A stretch of DNA of 64,000 bases from Escherichia coli. Its GTDB lineage: Bacteria > Pseudomonadota > Gammaproteobacteria > Enterobacterales > Enterobacteriaceae. Location: assembly GCF_003334255.1 (NCBI RefSeq), contig NZ_QOWU01000010.1, one strand, 5' to 3'. Positions 7,140 to 48,069 of the stretch are shown in pieces. Each line of letters starts with the position of its first letter. The stretch's first letter is position 1. Made by a program: the position numbers and the translations under genes. The notes under the pieces were generated by a model. The model was not told where the DNA came from and ran no database searches. It saw nothing but the letters and a program-made list of their open reading frames with translations.

Positions 7140-9932
<2,793 letters not shown>

Positions 9933-42415: not shown

Positions 42416-43645
42416 GTGAGCAGAGCAATGAACAAACTGAGCGATACCTTGCTAAGGAAACTTCATGGTAAGCCAGCGGAGAAAAACACGTTTTATAGTG
42501 ATGGCGGAAACCTGAGCGTGAAATATTTAACATCAGGGAAATTGACCTGGTATTTCACATACAGGGCCGGAACGGGAAGGGAGACACGACCCGAACGCAT
42601 TAAGCTGGGAAGTTATCCTGATCTGAGCCTGAAAGCAGCCAGGGAAAAAGCCGCACAGTGTCGCACATGGCTGGCTGAGGGGAAAAATCCACGTCATGAG
42701 ATGAATTACACCGTACAGGAAGCGTTAAAGCCCGTAACGGTTGGCGATGCGCTCACCTACTGGCTTGAGTATTACGTAAAGGAAAACCGCGTGGATTATA
42801 TCGCCCTGAAAAGGCGACTTAATAATCACGTAATACAGCAGATTGGTGCTATGCCGCTGGATAAATGCGAGCTACGGCACTGGCTGGCCTGTTTTGACCA
42901 GGTGGCAAAGCGAACGCCTGTTACTGCCGGATTCGTGCTACAGGCGTGCAAACAGGCGCTTAAGTTCTGCCGTAGGCGGCGCTATGCAATCAGCAACGTT
43001 CTGGACGATCTGAACGTGGCGGACGTTGGGAAAAAACCGGATATAAGCGAACGTGTCTTAAGTAACAAAGAACTTGGCGAATTATTGCAGGCACTGGACA
43101 AAAAAATATTTTCCCCTTACTACGTCGCGTTAATCCGCCTCCTGATTGTCTTCGGAGCCAGGACGGTAGAACTGAGGCTATCGGAGATCGGGGAGTGGGA
43201 TTTTACGGAAATGCTATGGACCGTTCCGAAGGAGCACAGCAAAACGAAGGTCGCAATATTCCGGCCCATACCGGAAGCGATCCTGCCGTTCGTCACGCAG
43301 CTGGTGGAGCAGAACAGGCACACGGGCTTATTGCTGGGGGAAGTGAAACAGGAGGCCAGCGTATCGCAGTATGGAAGATTAGCGCACAGGAGGCTTAATC
43401 ATCCTCACTGGTCACTGCATGACATCCGGCGCACCTTTACAACCATGCTGAACGATTTAGGCGTTGATCCGCATGTCGTGGAGCAGCTTACAGGTCATCA
43501 GATGCCAGGAATGCAGCGAGTTTATAATCATTCCCGTTATCTGGATGCTAAACGCAATGCGCTGGATATGTGGATGGAGCGGTTAGGGATACTGGCGGGA
43601 ACACATGAAAACGTAACCACGCTACCAGTAGCCAGAAGAAAATAA
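42416..43645 (+). CDS. int: Tyrosine recombinase/integrase, P4-type (N-terminal arm-binding domain)
   Basis: 409-aa ORF with a GTG start (alternative ATG at 42428). The N-terminus LSDTLLRKL..KNTFYSDGGNLSVKYLTSGKLTWYFTYR is typical of P4-like integrases. The C-terminus HDIRRTFTTML..LTGHQ..VYNHSRY carries the catalytic R..HxxR..Y set. Confidence 0.9.
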   Translation: MSRAMNKLSDTLLRKLHGKPAEKNTFYSDGGNLSVKYLTSGKLTWYFTYRAGTGRETRPERIKLGSYPDLSLKAAREKAAQCRTWLAEGKNPRHEMNYTVQEALKPVTVGDALTYWLEYYVKENRVDYIALKRRLNNHVIQQIGAMPLDKCELRHWLACFDQVAKRTPVTAGFVLQACKQALKFCRRRRYAISNVLDDLNVADVGKKPDISERVLSNKELGELLQALDKKIFSPYYVALIRLLIVFGARTVELRLSEIGEWDFTEMLWTVPKEHSKTKVAIFRPIPEAILPFVTQLVEQNRHTGLLLGEVKQEASVSQYGRLAHRRLNHPHWSLHDIRRTFTTMLNDLGVDPHVVEQLTGHQMPGMQRVYNHSRYLDAKRNALDMWMERLGILAGTHENVTTLPVARRK

Positions 43646-44019: not shown

Positions 44020-44208
44020 GTGTTAAGCACTGATCGGTTTATACGTGAAAAAGAATGCGAAAAGCTAACAGGCCTTAGCCGCTCATGCCGCTACCGCCTG
44101 GAAAAGGCCGGACAATTCCCATCACGTCGTAAACTTGGCGGTCGTTCCGTTGGCTGGTCTTTATCCGAGGTTCTGGCCTGGAAGGATAGCTGCAAGGCAG
44201 TTCATTAA
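44020..44208 (+). CDS. alpA: AlpA-family transcriptional regulator / excisionase-like DNA-binding protein
   Basis: 62-aa ORF (GTG start) with REKECEKLTGLSRSCRYRLEKAGQFPSRRKLGGRSVGWSLSEVLAWK. This matches the AlpA/Xis winged-helix pattern (..TGLSRST.YRL...G.FP.P.KLG.RSV.W...EV..W). Confidence 0.85.
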   Translation: MLSTDRFIREKECEKLTGLSRSCRYRLEKAGQFPSRRKLGGRSVGWSLSEVLAWKDSCKAVH

Positions 44209-44353
44209 TCACGCTGGCGGCACACAGCCGCCACACATCAATCATCTGAACACAGAGCTATAACCATGAAGATTGAATATACGCCAGAACGTGGGCGGGG
44301 ATTCGTTCGCCCTGGTGAGACTGGAAAACCACAAAATTGGGGTTTTTCAGGCA

Positions 44354-44383
44354 TAAAAAAAGCGGCCCCGAAATGGAGCCGCC
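44354..44383 (-). terminator. Rho-independent terminator for the leftward (repressor) transcript
   Basis: The minus strand reads GCGGCTCC-atttc-GGGGCCGC followed by T7. Confidence 0.65.
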
Positions 44384-44477
44384 TTTCTGAACAGATAACA
44401 CGCTGCGCCGTTTGTGTGTGTGATCCCAAACATAAGCACGGGGATGATAGCCGCTATCAGGCTGGTGGGCAATGCAA

Positions 44478-44666
44478 TCAGTCTGGTTCAGTTCGTTGCC
44501 ATACCTGCAATGAGCGCTTTTCCCTGTACTCTTTAAGGAATTGCTCAAGGGCAAAAGCACATGGCGCGAATCTTTCTGATTCATGCTCTATCTTTCTGCG
44601 CCGTCTTTTCCGTGCCGGTGATAATGTTTTGGTCAATTCTTTATCGGTCATTGTGTTGTCCTGCAT
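44478..44666 (-). CDS. Hypothetical small basic protein (57-62 aa), second gene of the leftward operon
   Basis: The ORF lies between the RHH gene and the leftward terminator. The alternative start at 44651 (MTDKELTK) has an AGGA 7-8 nt upstream, and an RKRRRRK patch is present. I recognise no homologue. Confidence 0.35.
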   Translation of the reverse strand: MQDNTMTDKELTKTLSPARKRRRRKIEHESERFAPCAFALEQFLKEYREKRSLQVWQRTEPD

Positions 44667-44708
44667 AGCAATGCGCCGTAATACCTCACACCACGGCGCT
44701 GATAGTGA

Positions 44709-45014
44709 TTATTCTGATTCTTTGGCCTTGCGGCGCTGTAGTTCTTCACGAGCGATGGCGATAAGTTGCCCGAGTTCTTCCGTAGCTTTAATACCAATTT
44801 TTTCCACTTGCGCCAATGCATCGAGAGAAGAAATCAGAGGATTTTCACTGCTTCCTTCTGCCTGGCGGCGGGCGATCTCCCCGCGCATGGCGGTTACTAT
44901 GAATCCGGCGTTGCTTTCGCCGTCCAGTTTTACGGATTCCATGCCATCAAAAGCATCATGTGGGATACGAATTGAAATCTGTTTTGATTTGTCGTTGATA
45001 GTGTTTTTTGCCAT
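44709..45014 (-). CDS. Putative ribbon-helix-helix (Arc/CopG-like) repressor of the island
   Basis: Start set at the ATG at 45014, 6 nt from AGGAGA at 45021-45026. The 101-aa protein MAKNTINDKSKQISIRIPHDAFDGMESVKLDGESNAGFIVTAMRGEIARRQ has a beta-strand/helix/helix pattern typical of RHH. It is divergent from the rightward operon. Confidence 0.5.
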   Translation of the reverse strand: MAKNTINDKSKQISIRIPHDAFDGMESVKLDGESNAGFIVTAMRGEIARRQAEGSSENPLISSLDALAQVEKIGIKATEELGQLIAIAREELQRRKAKESE

Positions 45015-45036
45015 GTGCATTCTCCTAAACAAAAGA

Positions 45037-45113
45037 TGTGATTCAGTATACACAAAAAAGAATCACAAAAAACACTTGACCTGTGATTCAGTTGAATTTA
45101 ATTTAAATCACAC
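45037..45113. promoter_or_regulatory. Divergent switch region: two inverted-repeat operators TGTGATT(C)-N15-17-(G)AATCACA flanking a TTGACC(-35)/TAATTT(-10) rightward promoter candidate
   Basis: O1 is TGTGATTC at 45037-45044 paired with GAATCACA at 45060-45067. O2 is TGTGATTC at 45082-45089 paired with AATCACA at 45106-45112. TTGACC at 45076-45081 is spaced 17 bp from TAATTT at 45099-45104. Confidence 0.5.
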
Positions 45114-45201
45114 CTCAGTAAGAGGATGTAAACGACAACGCCCCGAACTGTTTGCGGCAGTAGCGGGGCGTCTAACCAAACCGTTAACAGGAGTAACGAT
45201 T

Positions 45202-45399
45202 ATGGCTGGAACACAGCATACCCCACGTCTGGCGCACACACAAACTGCCTTTGTGTGGCGTTTTCTGGCACTAAGTGCCGGAGAATCTCAAATCATCCAC
45301 GTAACCGCCTGGACGGAACGCGAAGCGCGTAGCCGTTGCCCGTCCGGTTGTGTTGCTGTATTCGCCGCCCGTATTCGTCAGGGGGTGTGCCATGCCTGA
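45202..45399 (+). CDS. Icd-like (P4 host cell-division inhibitor-like) small protein
   Basis: 65-aa ORF preceded by AGGAG. FVWRFLALSAGESQIIHVTAWTEREARSRCPSGCVAVFAARIR fits the Icd-like pattern (F.W.F.A....I.A.SE.EAR......V..FA.R) as I recall it. It is the only plausible part of the 377-aa track ORF. Confidence 0.5.
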   Translation: MAGTQHTPRLAHTQTAFVWRFLALSAGESQIIHVTAWTEREARSRCPSGCVAVFAARIRQGVCHA

Positions 45400-45718: not shown

Positions 45719-46018
45719 ATGAGAACGTATTTATCTGGCTTTACTGCCAGCGGTTATGCACACCCCAAAATTATCCCCGGCGCTATTTATCTGGATAAGA
45801 ACGGTAACAGAGTAACGGTAAAAGAACTGATGTTTGACCGTGTGTATTTTATTCGTGATGGCTATTCATTTCATAGTTCGCTGAACGTGGAGATCTTTAT
45901 TAGCAGATTCCGGCGGGAAATCCCGCTTTCCAGAAATAACCATGTGTCATGTATGGATGTTGATAAAAAACTACAGGAACTGAAAAACATGATTGCCGCG
46001 TGGAGAGAGCAGAAATGA
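45719..46018 (+). CDS. Hypothetical protein, possibly DUF4222-like (99 aa)
   Basis: The core GAIYLDKNGNRVTVKELMFDRVYFIRDGYSF resembles the DUF4222 pattern seen in P4-like islands (recalled from memory). Its stop overlaps the primase start (ATGA). Confidence 0.45.
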   Translation: MRTYLSGFTASGYAHPKIIPGAIYLDKNGNRVTVKELMFDRVYFIRDGYSFHSSLNVEIFISRFRREIPLSRNNHVSCMDVDKKLQELKNMIAAWREQK

Positions 46019-47832
46019 AAAAAGCGCCAAATTTAAAACACCAGCCGCGTGACAAAATGACGGAAGTCATCATTTTTGCGGGTAGTGATGCGTGGGCACA
46101 TGCGAAGCAGTGGCAGGAACAGGACGGGCGACTGGCTGGCGATAACGTGCCACCTGTCTGGCTTGGAGAGCAACAACTTGCCGAACTGGACAACCTGCAA
46201 ATCGTACCGGACGGACGCTATCGCGTGCGTCTCTACCAGGCGGGGTTATTGCGTCCGGGGCTTGTTAATACCATCGGGCAGAAACTGGCAGCGGCAGGTG
46301 TCAGGGATGCTGATTATTACCCTGAAGGAATGCACAGCCAGAAACGGGAGAACTGGCGCGAATATCTGGAACGTGAGCGGGGAGAGCTGGCGGAAAAGAA
46401 AAAGGTAGTTGAACTGCCTGTAAAGAAAAAAGAGCGGGTAAAAGACGATAACGCTTCATCACTGGCGCTTAACCAGATGGGAGCAAGTCAACGCGGCGAA
46501 GTTCTCCTGGCACATTATGGCGGTGAACTGGCGATTCATGCTGACTCTGACACTGTTCACTATTACAACGGCGTTGTATGGGAGCCAGTACAGGATAAAG
46601 AATTACAGCGAGCTATGGCGCAGATTTTCATTGATGCGGAGATCAGCTATTCGCAGAACGCCATTAAATCGGCGGTCGATACCATGAAGTTAAGTTTGCC
46701 TGTAATGGGGAATACAGCCCGTAACCTGATTGGATTCAGTAACGGTGTTTTTGATACCCGGACAGGCGATTTTCGGGAGCATAACAAAAACGACTGGTTG
46801 TTAATTGCCAGTGAATTACCTTTCAGCCCACCAGCAGAGGGGGAAACGCTGGCAACACATGCGCCGAATTTCTGGAAGTGGTTACGCCGTTCGGTGGCTG
46901 AGAATGACCGCAAGGCGGATCGCGTACTGGCTGCATTATTCATGGTGCTGGCGAACCGGTACGACTGGCAGTTATTCATTGAGGTAACAGGTCCAGGGGG
47001 AAGTGGTAAAAGCGTGATGGCGGAGATTTGCACCATGCTGGCGGGTAAGGCCAACACGGTATCGGCAAGCATGAAGGCGCTGGAAGATGCCAGGGAACGC
47101 GCGTTAGTGGTTGGCTTTTCGCTGATTATCATGCCGGATATGACCCGTTACGCTGGTGATGGCGCAGGAATTAAGGCCATTACAGGCGGTGACAAGGTGG
47201 CAATCGACCCGAAGCATAAAGCCCCCTACTCAACACGCATTCAGGCGGTAGTGTTGGCGGTGAACAATAACGCCATGTCATTCAGTGACCGCAGCGGGGG
47301 GATTTCACGTCGTCGGGTGATATTCAATTTTTCGGAGGTTGTACCGGAAAACGAACGCGACCCCATGCTGGCAGAAAAAATAGAAGGAGAGCTGGCGGTT
47401 GTGATTCGCCACCTGCTTACTCGTTTTTCTGACCAGGACGCAGCTAAACGCCTGCTGTATGAGCAGCAGAAATCAGAAGAAGCTCTGGTGATAAAACGCG
47501 AGGGCGATTCGCTGGTGGACTTCTGCGGCTATCTCATGTCGTCGGTAATGTGTGATGGTCTGTTAGTGGGTAATGCCGAAATTATTCCGTTCAGTCCGCG
47601 CAGGTATCTTTATCACGCCTATCTGGCATATATGAGGGCACACGGATTCGGTAAACCTGTAACACTGACGCGCTTCGGTAAAGATATGCCGGGGGCAATG
47701 GCGGAATATGGCAGGGAGTATATGAAACGGAAAACGAAGCACGGTTTGCGTTCAAACGTGACACTGACGGAGGAATCAGAAGACTGGATGCCATCATGTG
47801 TATCGGTCACTAATGACGATAGCAAAAATTAA
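46015..47832 (+). CDS. Replication initiator: primase/helicase of the P4-alpha / D5 NTPase type (PICI pri-rep)
   Basis: About 605 aa with Walker A VTGPGGSGKS and a Walker B-like FSLIIMPDM. The C-terminal half resembles the phage/plasmid primase P4-family domain, and the iteron origin follows immediately. Confidence 0.8.
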   Translation: MKKAPNLKHQPRDKMTEVIIFAGSDAWAHAKQWQEQDGRLAGDNVPPVWLGEQQLAELDNLQIVPDGRYRVRLYQAGLLRPGLVNTIGQKLAAAGVRDADYYPEGMHSQKRENWREYLERERGELAEKKKVVELPVKKKERVKDDNASSLALNQMGASQRGEVLLAHYGGELAIHADSDTVHYYNGVVWEPVQDKELQRAMAQIFIDAEISYSQNAIKSAVDTMKLSLPVMGNTARNLIGFSNGVFDTRTGDFREHNKNDWLLIASELPFSPPAEGETLATHAPNFWKWLRRSVAENDRKADRVLAALFMVLANRYDWQLFIEVTGPGGSGKSVMAEICTMLAGKANTVSASMKALEDARERALVVGFSLIIMPDMTRYAGDGAGIKAITGGDKVAIDPKHKAPYSTRIQAVVLAVNNNAMSFSDRSGGISRRRVIFNFSEVVPENERDPMLAEKIEGELAVVIRHLLTRFSDQDAAKRLLYEQQKSEEALVIKREGDSLVDFCGYLMSSVMCDGLLVGNAEIIPFSPRRYLYHAYLAYMRAHGFGKPVTLTRFGKDMPGAMAEYGREYMKRKTKHGLRSNVTLTEESEDWMPSCVSVTNDDSKN

Positions 47833-47844
47833 ACTTATGGAATA

Positions 47845-48069
47845 ACTGTTCACCACTGTTCACCCTGTCATAAATATCTTTTGTATCAGTATGTTATAGG
47901 GTGAACAGTTATTTATGAACTGTTCACCAAACTATTCACTGTTCACCTTTTTGATTGTTTATTGAGCTTCAAGGGTGAACAGTGGTGAATAGTTGGTGAA
48001 TAGTTTTTGTGAAACTGTTCACCCCTTAACATTATGAATTAAAAGATAAAATATCAAAAGGTGAACAGG
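47845..48069. repeat. Island replication origin: at least 10 copies of the 10-bp iteron ACTGTTCACC in both orientations, plus an AT-rich tract
   Basis: Direct copies start at 47845, 47855, 47919, 47938 and 48014. Inverted copies (GGTGAACAGT/G) start at 47900, 47974 and 48060. Degenerate copies (GGTGAATAGT) start at 47984 and 47995. An AT-rich stretch spans 48030-48058. Confidence 0.8.

Follow-up and report, generated by a model that had tools for sequence, protein, structure and literature searches.

A candidate RHH repressor and four putative operator sites nested in an eta-like reading frame of an Escherichia coli capsid-forming PICI

In a 64,000-nucleotide stretch of Escherichia coli DNA (hereafter the window), a leftward operon led by a ribbon-helix-helix (RHH)-like gene and a rightward replication operon diverge from a 187-bp gap (45015-45201). 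It is likely that a sequence-specific RHH repressor acts on four sites in this gap to silence the Icd-like/replication operon, inside an eta-like + strand ORF that AlpA-driven read-through would cross. Judged from sequence comparison, the place taken by RNA immunity in satellite P4 is probably filled by a protein immunity cassette, which translated transcripts reading through from alpA can probably overrun. An earlier note on this DNA had proposed a compact divergent switch; the divergent genes and the gap were found as described, but the region is not plainly intergenic, as it lies wholly inside the eta-like ORF, and this placement likely changes the mechanism by which such a switch would be flipped.

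The window contains a capsid-forming PICI inserted in tqsA. Its gene set (int, alpA, primase, its own capsid, protease, portal, connectors, HNH and terminase) was identified among the window ORFs with Pfam and places the island among the capsid-forming PICIs, and near-identical islands at the same tqsA site have the full capsid-forming gene set listed in their RefSeq annotation. No tail or lysis genes were found in the island, the absence of tail genes holding for the 20 kb examined. The leftward operon is placed between alpA and the Icd-like/primase operon. AlpA is the known activator of Gram-negative PICIs, EcCICFT073 is induced by AlpA overexpression alone, and transcription of these islands has been described as one-directional, rightward from the int/alpA end (PMC6092414). 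A Pseudomonas protein that shares the name AlpA is reported to act as a processive antiterminator. Whether Gram-negative PICIs have a repressor was left unclear by the founding paper, and the published description of these islands contains none; an RHH repressor would be, as proposed earlier, an added regulatory layer. No experiment in which a deletion led to helper-independent induction, or in which a helper protein lifted repression, was found in the literature examined for Gram-negative PICIs. The features of the locus are collected in Table 1.

Table 1. Features of the candidate repressor/operator module and its neighbours (positions in the window)
Feature	Position	Strand	Remarks
alpA, 62 aa	44020..44208	+	Pfam Phage_AlpA, E 5e-18; adjoins the module on its upstream side
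eta-like long ORF, 377 aa	44266..45399	+	Open from 44209, directly past the alpA stop; shares the phase of the Icd-like ORF
Intrinsic terminator of the leftward operon	44354..44387	-	13-bp stem and U7
57-aa basic two-helix protein, second leftward gene	44478..44651	-	phrog_21027, E 1.6e-15
101-aa YlcI/YnfO-family protein, proposed repressor	45014-44709	-	Predicted RHH domain at aa ~9-54 and C-terminal helix at aa 59-100
Site S1, TGTGATTCA	45037..45045		Adjoins the leftward transcript start; position kept in types A, B, C and E
Leftward -10 candidate, TATACT	45045..45050	-	Between S1 and S2; read from sequence
Site S2, AGAATCACA	45059..45067		Inverted, 1 mismatch
Rightward -35, TTGACC	45076..45081	+	TTGAC stays in place in nearly all types, although the sites on either side differ
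Site S3, TGTGATTCA	45082..45090		Abuts the -35
Rightward -10 candidate, TAATTT	45099..45104	+	17-bp spacer after the -35; read from sequence
Site S4, TAAATCACA	45104..45112		Inverted, 1 mismatch; overlaps the edge of the -10 and the point where transcription is expected to start
Conserved hairpin, rightward operon leader	45138..45171	+	-21 kcal/mol; TCTAACCA always after it
Icd-like ORF, 65 aa; opens the rightward replication operon	45202..45399	+	NCBIfam NF033153, E 5e-18

The 101-aa protein, found at the coordinates given in the earlier note, belongs to the YlcI/YnfO family: it scored 65.7 bits against NCBIfam NF041551 (cutoff 30) over aa 9-50, and PGAP gives it the YlcI/YnfO name in RefSeq. 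In its predicted structure, a monomer with a pLDDT of 78, an N-terminal strand leads into a pair of helices with the size and packing of an RHH domain, after which comes a C-terminal helix predicted to be long and amphipathic. The G-x-S/T/N turn expected between the helices of an RHH domain is present as G32-E33-S34. G32 does not vary in the family, K-12 YlcI being no exception; E33 is the same in all 26 homologues, YlcI having Ser instead, and position 34 is S or T in all members except YlcI. The family is kept across Enterobacterales with 60-90% amino-acid identity across genera, and differences in the leftward frame fall far more often at codon position 3 than at position 1, and at position 1 more often than at position 2. 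No Pfam RHH model matched the protein (PSK_trans_fac reached 16.5 bits against a cutoff of 28.3, the best member having an E of 0.0011), and the Arc/Mnt Pfam family matched neither it nor the 26 homologues. Profile searches of PDB sequences, performed with the full family and with the N-terminal domain, and a Foldseek search found no RHH protein, and BLASTP gave no alignment between the window protein and K-12 YlcI, though the two share the NCBIfam model. Taken together, the structural model and the NF041551 match support the earlier assignment of the protein as RHH-like, with a predicted RHH-type N-terminal domain. The homologue in EcCICFT073 is without the C-terminal helix, so oligomerisation through this helix could not be universal.

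The second leftward gene is, as had been proposed, a basic ORF of 57-62 aa. An alternative upstream ATG at 44666 would give 62 aa; the start for 57 aa is the one conserved in homologues and is preceded by an AGGA Shine-Dalgarno sequence. The protein has 36 homologue clusters, which come without exception from E. coli or Shigella and carry only the name 'hypothetical'; a core of RKRRRRK...ERFAPCAFALEKFLKEY is conserved, and no match was found in Pfam, NCBIfam or PADLOC, in agreement with its earlier description as uncharacterised. The synonymous fraction was highest in its frame (0.34 vs 0.12 and 0.09), AF2 predicted two helices with a pLDDT of 69.5, and the gene is missing from many related loci. 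The intrinsic terminator proposed to end this operon was also recovered; its fold had an energy of -22.4 kcal/mol (z -3.5), equalled by none of 200 shuffles, and read on the + strand it was weak (-15.4, z -1.0).

The gap had been described as holding two inverted-repeat operators of the same design. The repeats were found at those coordinates, matching at 8/8 positions with an N15 spacer and at 7/7 with an N16 spacer; TGTGATTCAGT occurs twice, 45 bp apart, as does AATCACA. A better description of the repeats is four 9-bp sites at even spacing, with centres at 45041, 45063, 45086 and 45108, 22-23 bp apart. This spacing is unusual for RHH proteins. Five copies of TGTGATTC were counted in the 64 kb vs 2.2 expected, three of them inside 54 bp. 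Set among the four sites are a TTGAC -35, which is conserved, and two hexamers that resemble a -10; relative to the two operators first proposed, the rightward -35 lies between them and its -10 inside the spacer of the second. The rightward promoter candidate named earlier was present where it had been placed and agrees with the consensus at 8/12 positions (3/6 in the -10), and a simple promoter scan called neither it nor the leftward candidate, which is without a good -35. Across specificity types, a -10-like hexamer is kept at the leftward -10 place, and TAACAT, TAAAGT or TAATGT stands at the rightward one. The geometry fits the earlier suggestion of occlusion at one operator and autoregulation at the other, as S3 and S4 would cover the rightward promoter and S1 and S2 the leftward one.

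To compare the module between islands, 90 related loci and EcCICFT073 were used, many of the loci being close relatives and most from E. coli. The scan of genome contigs gave just 7 loci, so most of the comparative power comes from IMG/VR loci; the sole pair of loci from one genome (L060/L061) is a duplicate. Nine alleles of the N-terminal strand were distinguished in the 90 loci, and each was accompanied by a characteristic site sequence without a single exception; EcCICFT073 added a tenth pair (KSQALKARVP with GTGGGCCAC). The site sequences form a limited set at fixed positions, and in the two pairs of most similar alleles the site is the same, or almost the same, within the pair. In types A, B, C and E the site centres lie 27, 49, 72 and 94 nt from the ATG while the sequences differ. 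AlpA alleles and Icd-like clusters reassort freely against operator types, and mosaic breakpoints bracket exactly the RHH N-terminus and the gap. Comparison of the loci indicates that the N-terminal strand and the operator gap, about 44940-45200, behave as an exchangeable specificity cassette. Because strand alleles and sites pair without exception while AlpA and Icd-like alleles reassort, the 101-aa protein likely binds S1-S4, and the repeats are likely its operators, as the earlier note had proposed; the pairing could partly reflect tight physical linkage. These data argue that the 101-aa protein binds the sites, represses the rightward promoter and autoregulates. The prototype PICI EcCICFT073 also carries the repressor/operator module, and 675 of 5426 complete E. 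coli genomes (12%) have a blastn match to the repressor gene and gap; the module is therefore not special to the island in the window.

The long + strand ORF lies antisense to the whole leftward operon, from its terminator across the 57-aa gene to the repressor gene; beyond these it crosses the operator/promoter gap, and its last part is the Icd-like ORF, nested in frame. As proposed earlier, the rightward operon starts with the Icd-like ORF and continues into replication genes; the stop of the Icd-like ORF overlaps the next ATG (45392), and the genes that follow are tightly packed up to a D5-type primase (46000-47832). PGAP labels part of the long ORF an 'Icd-like' pseudogene, and outside its Icd-like end the + translation matched no family. 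The layout is common to related loci and EcCICFT073 and is conserved across specificity types. Among 38 unique 170-nt segments of the gap, 34 had no stop in the + frame, and the same held for 9 of the 12 representatives of the types, with shuffle probabilities of 0.013-0.054 each. In the + frame, codon position 2 varies more than position 1, whereas in the leftward frame position 2 is the most conserved. The + frame is interrupted in EcCIEDL933-like islands (L002, L088) and in L004, L007 and L009; EcCIEDL933 is inducible despite this interruption, so read-through translation cannot be required everywhere. A long ORF in frame with alpA was dropped as a general feature, being particular to the arrangement in the window.

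The hairpin in the leader of the rightward operon showed covariation, with five pairs changed on both sides and 16 such cells, a score reached by none of 500 shuffles. It matched no Rfam family, and TCTAACCA, which follows it, may be a boxA-like element. The hairpin was considered as a C4/CI-type or isrK RNA and dropped, given that no Rfam match was found in the window or its relatives.

A close likeness in layout was found with the immunity region of satellite P4, which is ordered vis, nested eta/kil genes, CI RNA, epsilon and alpha primase. Both have an AlpA-family gene, a long ORF that starts from or over its end and spans the immunity determinant and an internal promoter, a nested in-frame Icd-like end and then the primase operon. 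P4 ORF 8168-8812 has its Icd-like domain at aa 161-208, and the long ORF of the window likewise ends Icd-like, with the Icd-like gene nested inside it. As summarised in PMC10111431, immunity-specific termination in P4 is prevented when eta is translated from the upstream promoter. P4 immunity is exerted by a C4-family RNA with an isrK-like target on the same strand, whereas the island appears to have an antisense protein repressor gene in the ORF together with DNA operators. C4 and isrK gave no match in the window at E<=1 or in 8 related loci at the gathering score, and both were found in P4 as a positive control. The Pfam Ash family, which covers P4 eta, did not match the window ORF, and BLASTP gave no alignment between the Icd-like ORF and the P4 'cI' ORF, though an NCBIfam model is common to both.

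Other known systems resemble the module in part. In the P22 immI region (Mnt, Arc; divergent Pmnt/Pant), an RHH repressor with a C-terminal oligomerising helix is encoded by a gene that points away from the operon under its repression, its operators overlap promoters arranged back to back, and it serves as a secondary, SOS-independent maintenance repressor. The island differs in having four sites 22-23 bp apart instead of one roughly 20-bp operator, in being without an Arc-like second repressor, in having a replication operon and not an antirepressor as the target, and in a protein without sequence match to the Arc/Mnt family. The Stl/Rpr repressors of SaPIs and Gram-positive PICIs are encoded by the int end, facing the replication operon, and keep the island quiescent (PMC6092414), but this is a functional analogy only. 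The int gene is co-oriented with Stl and not with the candidate repressor of the island, and Stl is lifted by binding of a helper protein, whereas the island requires AlpA and no anti-repressor is known for it. Stl is a helix-turn-helix protein, and its fold probably differs from that of the island protein. YlcI/YnfO of the lambdoid prophages DLP12 and Qin have the same NCBIfam N-terminal domain and align over the strand-helix-helix; however, K-12 YlcI is 64 aa long, adjoins nohD in the late region and is without the C-terminal helix. In NikR, two RHH dimers on a central domain read half-sites about two turns apart (GTATGA-N16-TCATAC), though that domain is a metal-binding tetramerisation domain. 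The omega protein of pSM19035 reads contiguous WATCACW heptads, direct or inverted, and this heptad forms the core of the type-A site of the island (AATCACA). Homology of the island protein to NikR and omega does not extend beyond the fold.

In the preferred reading, the 101-aa repressor would be made from the weak leftward promoter, and its dimers, probably joined via the long C-terminal helix, would occupy the four sites. Occupancy of S3 and S4, placed on either side of the rightward promoter's spacer and -10, would silence the Icd-like/replication operon in the resting island, and occupancy of S1 and S2, which flank the -10 of the repressor's own promoter, would give negative autoregulation. 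On induction, helper-induced AlpA would raise transcription from the alpA promoter, and the alpA transcript, translated through the stop-free frame, would cross the repressor operon antisense and the operators into the replication genes. Kept translated by this frame, the transcript would be shielded from Rho. Such read-through would bypass the repressor and lower its synthesis. A more specific version is possible, though on balance we lean slightly against it: an RHH-strand/four-operator cassette would have replaced P4-type RNA immunity, antisense in a translated eta-like ORF; induction would overrun the repressor, Rho-resistant head-on transcripts would silence its operon, and the promoter/operator DNA would be dual-coded, as a binding array and as a frame selected only for openness.

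Four other readings of the locus were weighed. The four-dimer array could be mainly a roadblock to RNA polymerase arriving from alpA, with the TTGAC element no active promoter. The published rightward transcription from the int/alpA end (PMC6092414), the weak local -10 of a promoter that the scan did not call, and the stop-free + frame, by which rightward transcripts are expected to cross the region, all favour this; however, TTGAC-17-TAnnnT stays in register across specificity types while its surroundings all change, S3 and S4 lie exactly on the promoter spacer and -10, and P4 has a constitutive promoter, PLE, at the corresponding point within eta (PMC10111431), so that we regard the roadblock as unlikely. 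That the leftward pair is a toxin-antitoxin-like addiction module, in which an RHH antitoxin autoregulates its own promoter only, the 57-aa protein is the toxin and rightward control is incidental, appears quite improbable. Many loci that retain the RHH gene together with all sites and the conserved C-terminal helix do not have the 57-aa gene, the obligate co-occurrence expected of a type II toxin-antitoxin system is thus not seen, and the 57-aa protein matches no Pfam, NCBIfam or PADLOC family; conversely, in EcCICFT073 the 57-aa gene is kept beside an RHH protein without its C-terminal part. Moreover, two of the four sites flank the conserved rightward -35/-10 and not the RHH promoter.

The two remaining readings concern which protein acts and which strand encodes it. 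AlpA is a DNA-binding protein and PHROGs call Icd-like families 'transcriptional repressor', so the repeats could be bound by AlpA, an Icd-like protein or a host protein, the RHH-like protein having a different role. The PHROG label, however, appears to trace to an old annotation of the P4 eta/kil ORF as 'cI gene product', and Icd-like and AlpA alleles reassort against site types, which the RHH strand allele never does; this reading is very unlikely. Lastly, the long + ORF could be the sole real gene and the leftward ORFs spurious, given that the + frame is conserved as an open frame and that PGAP aligns part of it to database 'Icd-like' proteins, but substitutions follow the leftward frame at codon position 2, the RHH protein keeps its high amino-acid identity across genera and the + translation matches no family beyond its Icd-like end. 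We find it barely credible.

PICIs are widespread and serve as carriers of virulence, defence and gene transfer. An allele-specific repressor/operator cassette, if true, would be a concrete candidate for the missing maintenance function in Gram-negative PICIs, and its alleles would amount to naturally occurring swaps of specificity in RHH-DNA recognition. The nested layout may explain the 'Icd-like' pseudogene ORFs reported by annotation pipelines and possibly why the leftward genes went unremarked. The stop-free frame over the promoter/operator region would be a rare case of selection for translatability and not for a protein product, and the module would tie PICIs mechanistically to P4.

The earlier note had read this region as a divergent switch in which an RHH repressor occludes the rightward promoter and regulates its own gene, and every element that it listed was found in place. 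The core of that interpretation appears to be right, as judged from the sequence comparisons, although it was incomplete, because a long + strand frame running through the region had been overlooked.

The predicted repressor (101 aa) is named a YlcI/YnfO family protein by PGAP, matches NF041551 over aa 9-50 (65.7 bits against a cutoff of 30) and is matched end to end by phrog_6522. Homologues with 59-98% identity were found in Escherichia, Salmonella, Citrobacter, Yersinia, Serratia, Edwardsiella, Klebsiella, Enterobacter, Erwinia, Photorhabdus and Xenorhabdus, and a few of them carry CopG- or Arc-like UniRef names. Across 33 distinct genes, codons 31-101 differ 2746, 790 and 8514 times at codon positions 1, 2 and 3, indicating that the leftward frame is under purifying selection. 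Sequence-based tests against RHH families gave no significant match; thus, the fold assignment rests on the AlphaFold model (pLDDT 77.7; extended at 11-17, helices at 19-28 and 35-54, and a long helix at 59-100) and on the conserved G-x-S/T turn typical of the RHH fold, with G32 unchanged throughout and S or T at position 34 in all but K-12 YlcI. Being amphipathic and conserved, the C-terminal helix is a candidate oligomerisation element.

The second leftward ORF, previously given as 57-62 aa, is present and most likely starts at 44651 (57 aa), a conserved position preceded by an AGGA ribosome-binding site. Its product is a basic protein, probably, from modelling, of two helices; homologues occur in E. 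coli and Shigella only, every one named 'hypothetical', and the gene is missing from many related loci. No support was found for a toxin role. The proposed leftward intrinsic terminator was borne out, being strong on the - strand (13-bp stem, U7, -22.4 kcal/mol, z -3.5) and weak on the + strand. A 7-bp GC-rich hairpin (44673-44699, GCGCCGT-N13-ACGGCGC) follows the repressor stop and precedes the start of the 57-aa ORF; it may serve in intercistronic processing or stability.

Features of the island and of the switch region (window coordinates)
Feature	Position	Strand	Remarks
Tyrosine integrase	42416-43645		island gene
alpA	44020-44208		island gene, between integrase and repressor region
Candidate leftward -10, TATACT	45050-45045	-	between S1 and S2, ~24 nt upstream of repressor ATG
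Candidate rightward promoter, TTGACC-17 bp-TAATTT	45076-45081, 45099-45104	+	based on conservation
Leader hairpin	45138-45171		leader of rightward operon; then TCTAACCA
D5-type primase	46000-47832		downstream of repressor region

The gap between the repressor gene and the Icd-like ORF had been assigned two operators; the repeats are present, but they resolve into four 9-bp sites of the form TGTnnnnCA in alternating orientation (S1-S4, centred at 45041, 45063, 45086 and 45108). S3 abuts the candidate rightward -35, and S4 lies over the edge of the -10 and the expected start. The gap was compared with 89 related loci (7 genomes of other genera, 80 IMG/VR contigs and 2 RefSeq islands), and a single architecture was seen in all of them: sites at 27, 49, 72, 94 and sometimes 116 nt from the repressor ATG, a conserved TTGAC between the second and third sites, and -10-like hexamers within each site pair. 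Site sequences vary between groups of loci while their positions are fixed. A simple promoter scan called neither candidate promoter, and the leftward hexamer has no good -35; both are therefore proposed from conservation rather than consensus strength. Fifth sites at +116 occur in operator types B (L038, L068) and E (L042), and in type E the downstream sites are direct rather than inverted at the same 20-23 bp spacing, which suggests that each 9-bp site is bound alone as a pseudo-palindrome. In two type A loci (L012, L016) the rightward -35 CTTGACC is changed to CTTTACC or CTTTGCC, which may be promoter-down variants, and the first rightward gene differs. The leader hairpin is kept in all types, with compensatory changes at 5 pairs and a covariation score reached by 0 of 500 shuffles; it matched no Rfam family.

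Residues 9-17, the predicted DNA-reading strand, have their own allele in each group of loci, and each allele is paired with a site sequence.

Strand alleles of the repressor and the sites with which they occur
Strand allele	Site
KSKQISIRIP	TGTGATTCA
KSQLTTVRVP	TGTGTTTCA
KSQSLTARIP	TGTAAG(A/C)CA
KSQMTTIRVP	TGTATATCA
KSQMTT(V/I)RIP	TGTATTTCA
KSQLKNIRIP, KSQIKNVRIP	TGTGTATT(T/G)
KSQIKNVRVP	TGTGCATTT

Allele and site were discordant in none of 90 loci, and the nearest two allele pairs have a site common or nearly common to both. Linkage contributes to this pairing. Pairwise identity profiles place the exchanged unit at ~44940-45200, covering the gap and the N-terminal part of the repressor: L086 is ~100% identical to the window leftward as far as the repressor gene and divergent beyond, and L068 has the Icd-like gene in common with the window but not the cassette. 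Icd-like clusters reassort with operator types (I0, I1 and I9 each with two), and AlpA alleles likewise combine freely with them. Despite linkage, the limits of the cassette coincide with the DNA-binding segment and the sites, as predicted for a repressor/operator pair. The proposal that the repeats are cognate operators of the RHH protein is thus supported at the level of sequence.

The + strand frame of the Icd-like ORF is open from 44209, immediately past the alpA stop codon, and gives a 377-aa ORF from 44266. Openness antisense to the two leftward genes is unremarkable (P about 0.2-0.35 and 0.6-0.9), because stops in that phase need Tyr, His or Gln codons on the opposite strand; in the AT-rich gap and in 44209-44477 it is improbable (P 0.026 and 0.028, dinucleotide shuffling). 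The frame is stop-free in 34 of 38 distinct 170-nt gap segments, the other two frames having 1-8 stops, and in 9/12 representatives of different specificity types (shuffle probability 0.013-0.054 each). Openness is conserved where the gap sequence is not, and the Icd-like ATG is in phase at all gap lengths (187, 190, 193, 196, 208 and 211 bp). In related loci the long ORF spans 304-510 aa. It mostly begins where the + gene before it (alpA or a Bro-like gene) ends, or just beyond, and some copies are fused to a Bro-N-like N-terminus. The encoded protein sequence lacks conservation and has no family match outside the Icd-like end, and the pattern of substitution is that of the leftward frame; what is selected therefore seems to be openness rather than a product. 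The long ORF is interrupted in EcCIEDL933-like islands and a few others, and is thus not indispensable.

A Bro-N-like domain heads the long ORF in EcCICFT073 (L094 7767-8060), L058 (1837-2130) and other islands; the window keeps just its first ~16 codons (MKIEYTPERGRGFVRP, 44266-44330), the remainder being deleted in frame. Directly after the alpA stop, a perfect GGCGGC-ACACA-GCCGCC hairpin lacking a U-run (44214-44230), conserved in EcCICFT073 (L094 ~7720-7736), could have a role in pausing, processing or antitermination. PGAP repeatedly makes part of the long ORF an 'Icd-like' pseudogene; RefSeq 'Icd-like' or 'hypothetical' pseudogenes overlap the YlcI/YnfO gene at L001 9067-9624, L002 9062-9619 and L091 8636-9115. 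PHROGs call Icd-like families 'transcriptional repressor', apparently after an obsolete P4 'cI gene product' CDS.

In satellite phage P4, the 214-aa ORF eta (8168-8812) overlaps the end of vis, which is homologous to alpA. Within eta lie the CI RNA (Rfam C4) and an isrK-like element, and its last part is an Icd-like domain, the nested kil gene. The window has the same eta/kil layout, and the long ORF is therefore read as the eta counterpart; however, it has an antisense RHH cassette where P4 has the CI and isrK-like RNAs, neither of which was found in the window. The Pfam 'Ash protein family' (PF10554) matches P4 eta at aa 37-161, the stretch encoding the CI RNA and isrK-like target, so that this family may partly reflect RNA conservation. 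As summarized in PMC10111431 (citing Forti et al.), immunity-specific termination is prevented when eta is translated from the upstream late promoter, and transcription then reads into the replication genes. By analogy, AlpA-activated transcripts, kept translated, would run through the repressor operon, cross the operators and reach the replication operon, and convergent transcription would lower repressor synthesis. This proposal agrees with published work in which AlpA is an activator and its overexpression is by itself enough to induce EcCICFT073 (PMC6092414).

The island occupies ~42.4-57 kb at tqsA. Its order 3' of the repressor region is the Icd-like ORF, a DUF4222 protein, the primase, ssb and perC, then HK97-type capsid, protease, portal, connectors, HNH and terminase; RefSeq annotates the same set of genes in near-identical islands inserted at this site. 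The island belongs to the capsid-forming PICIs of the EcCIEDL933 kind. Just 3' of the primase stop, a long inverted array of GGTGAACAG/GGTGAATAG-type repeats (47908-48015), which surfaced in Rfam as spurious plant microRNA matches, is probably the replication origin (iterons). The Rfam int-alpA RNA (RF02996) lies between int and alpA in two related islands, L021 (~147-214) and L006 (~457-525; both numbered in rightward orientation); Rfam detected none in the window.

By blastn, the repressor gene and gap are matched in 675 of 5426 complete E. coli genomes, and one of the matches is a classical PICI of strain Nissle. The module of the model island EcCICFT073 encodes a leftward 59-aa YlcI/YnfO protein comprising the RHH part only (strand KSQALKARVP) and the same 57-aa gene, with GTGGGCCACAC repeats 23 bp apart after CTTGAC. 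No description of the 101-aa protein in PICIs was found in the literature searched. The switch would be a variant combining known kinds, a Mnt-like RHH switch within a P4-like eta/kil frame, and is directly relevant to whether Gram-negative PICIs have a repressor.
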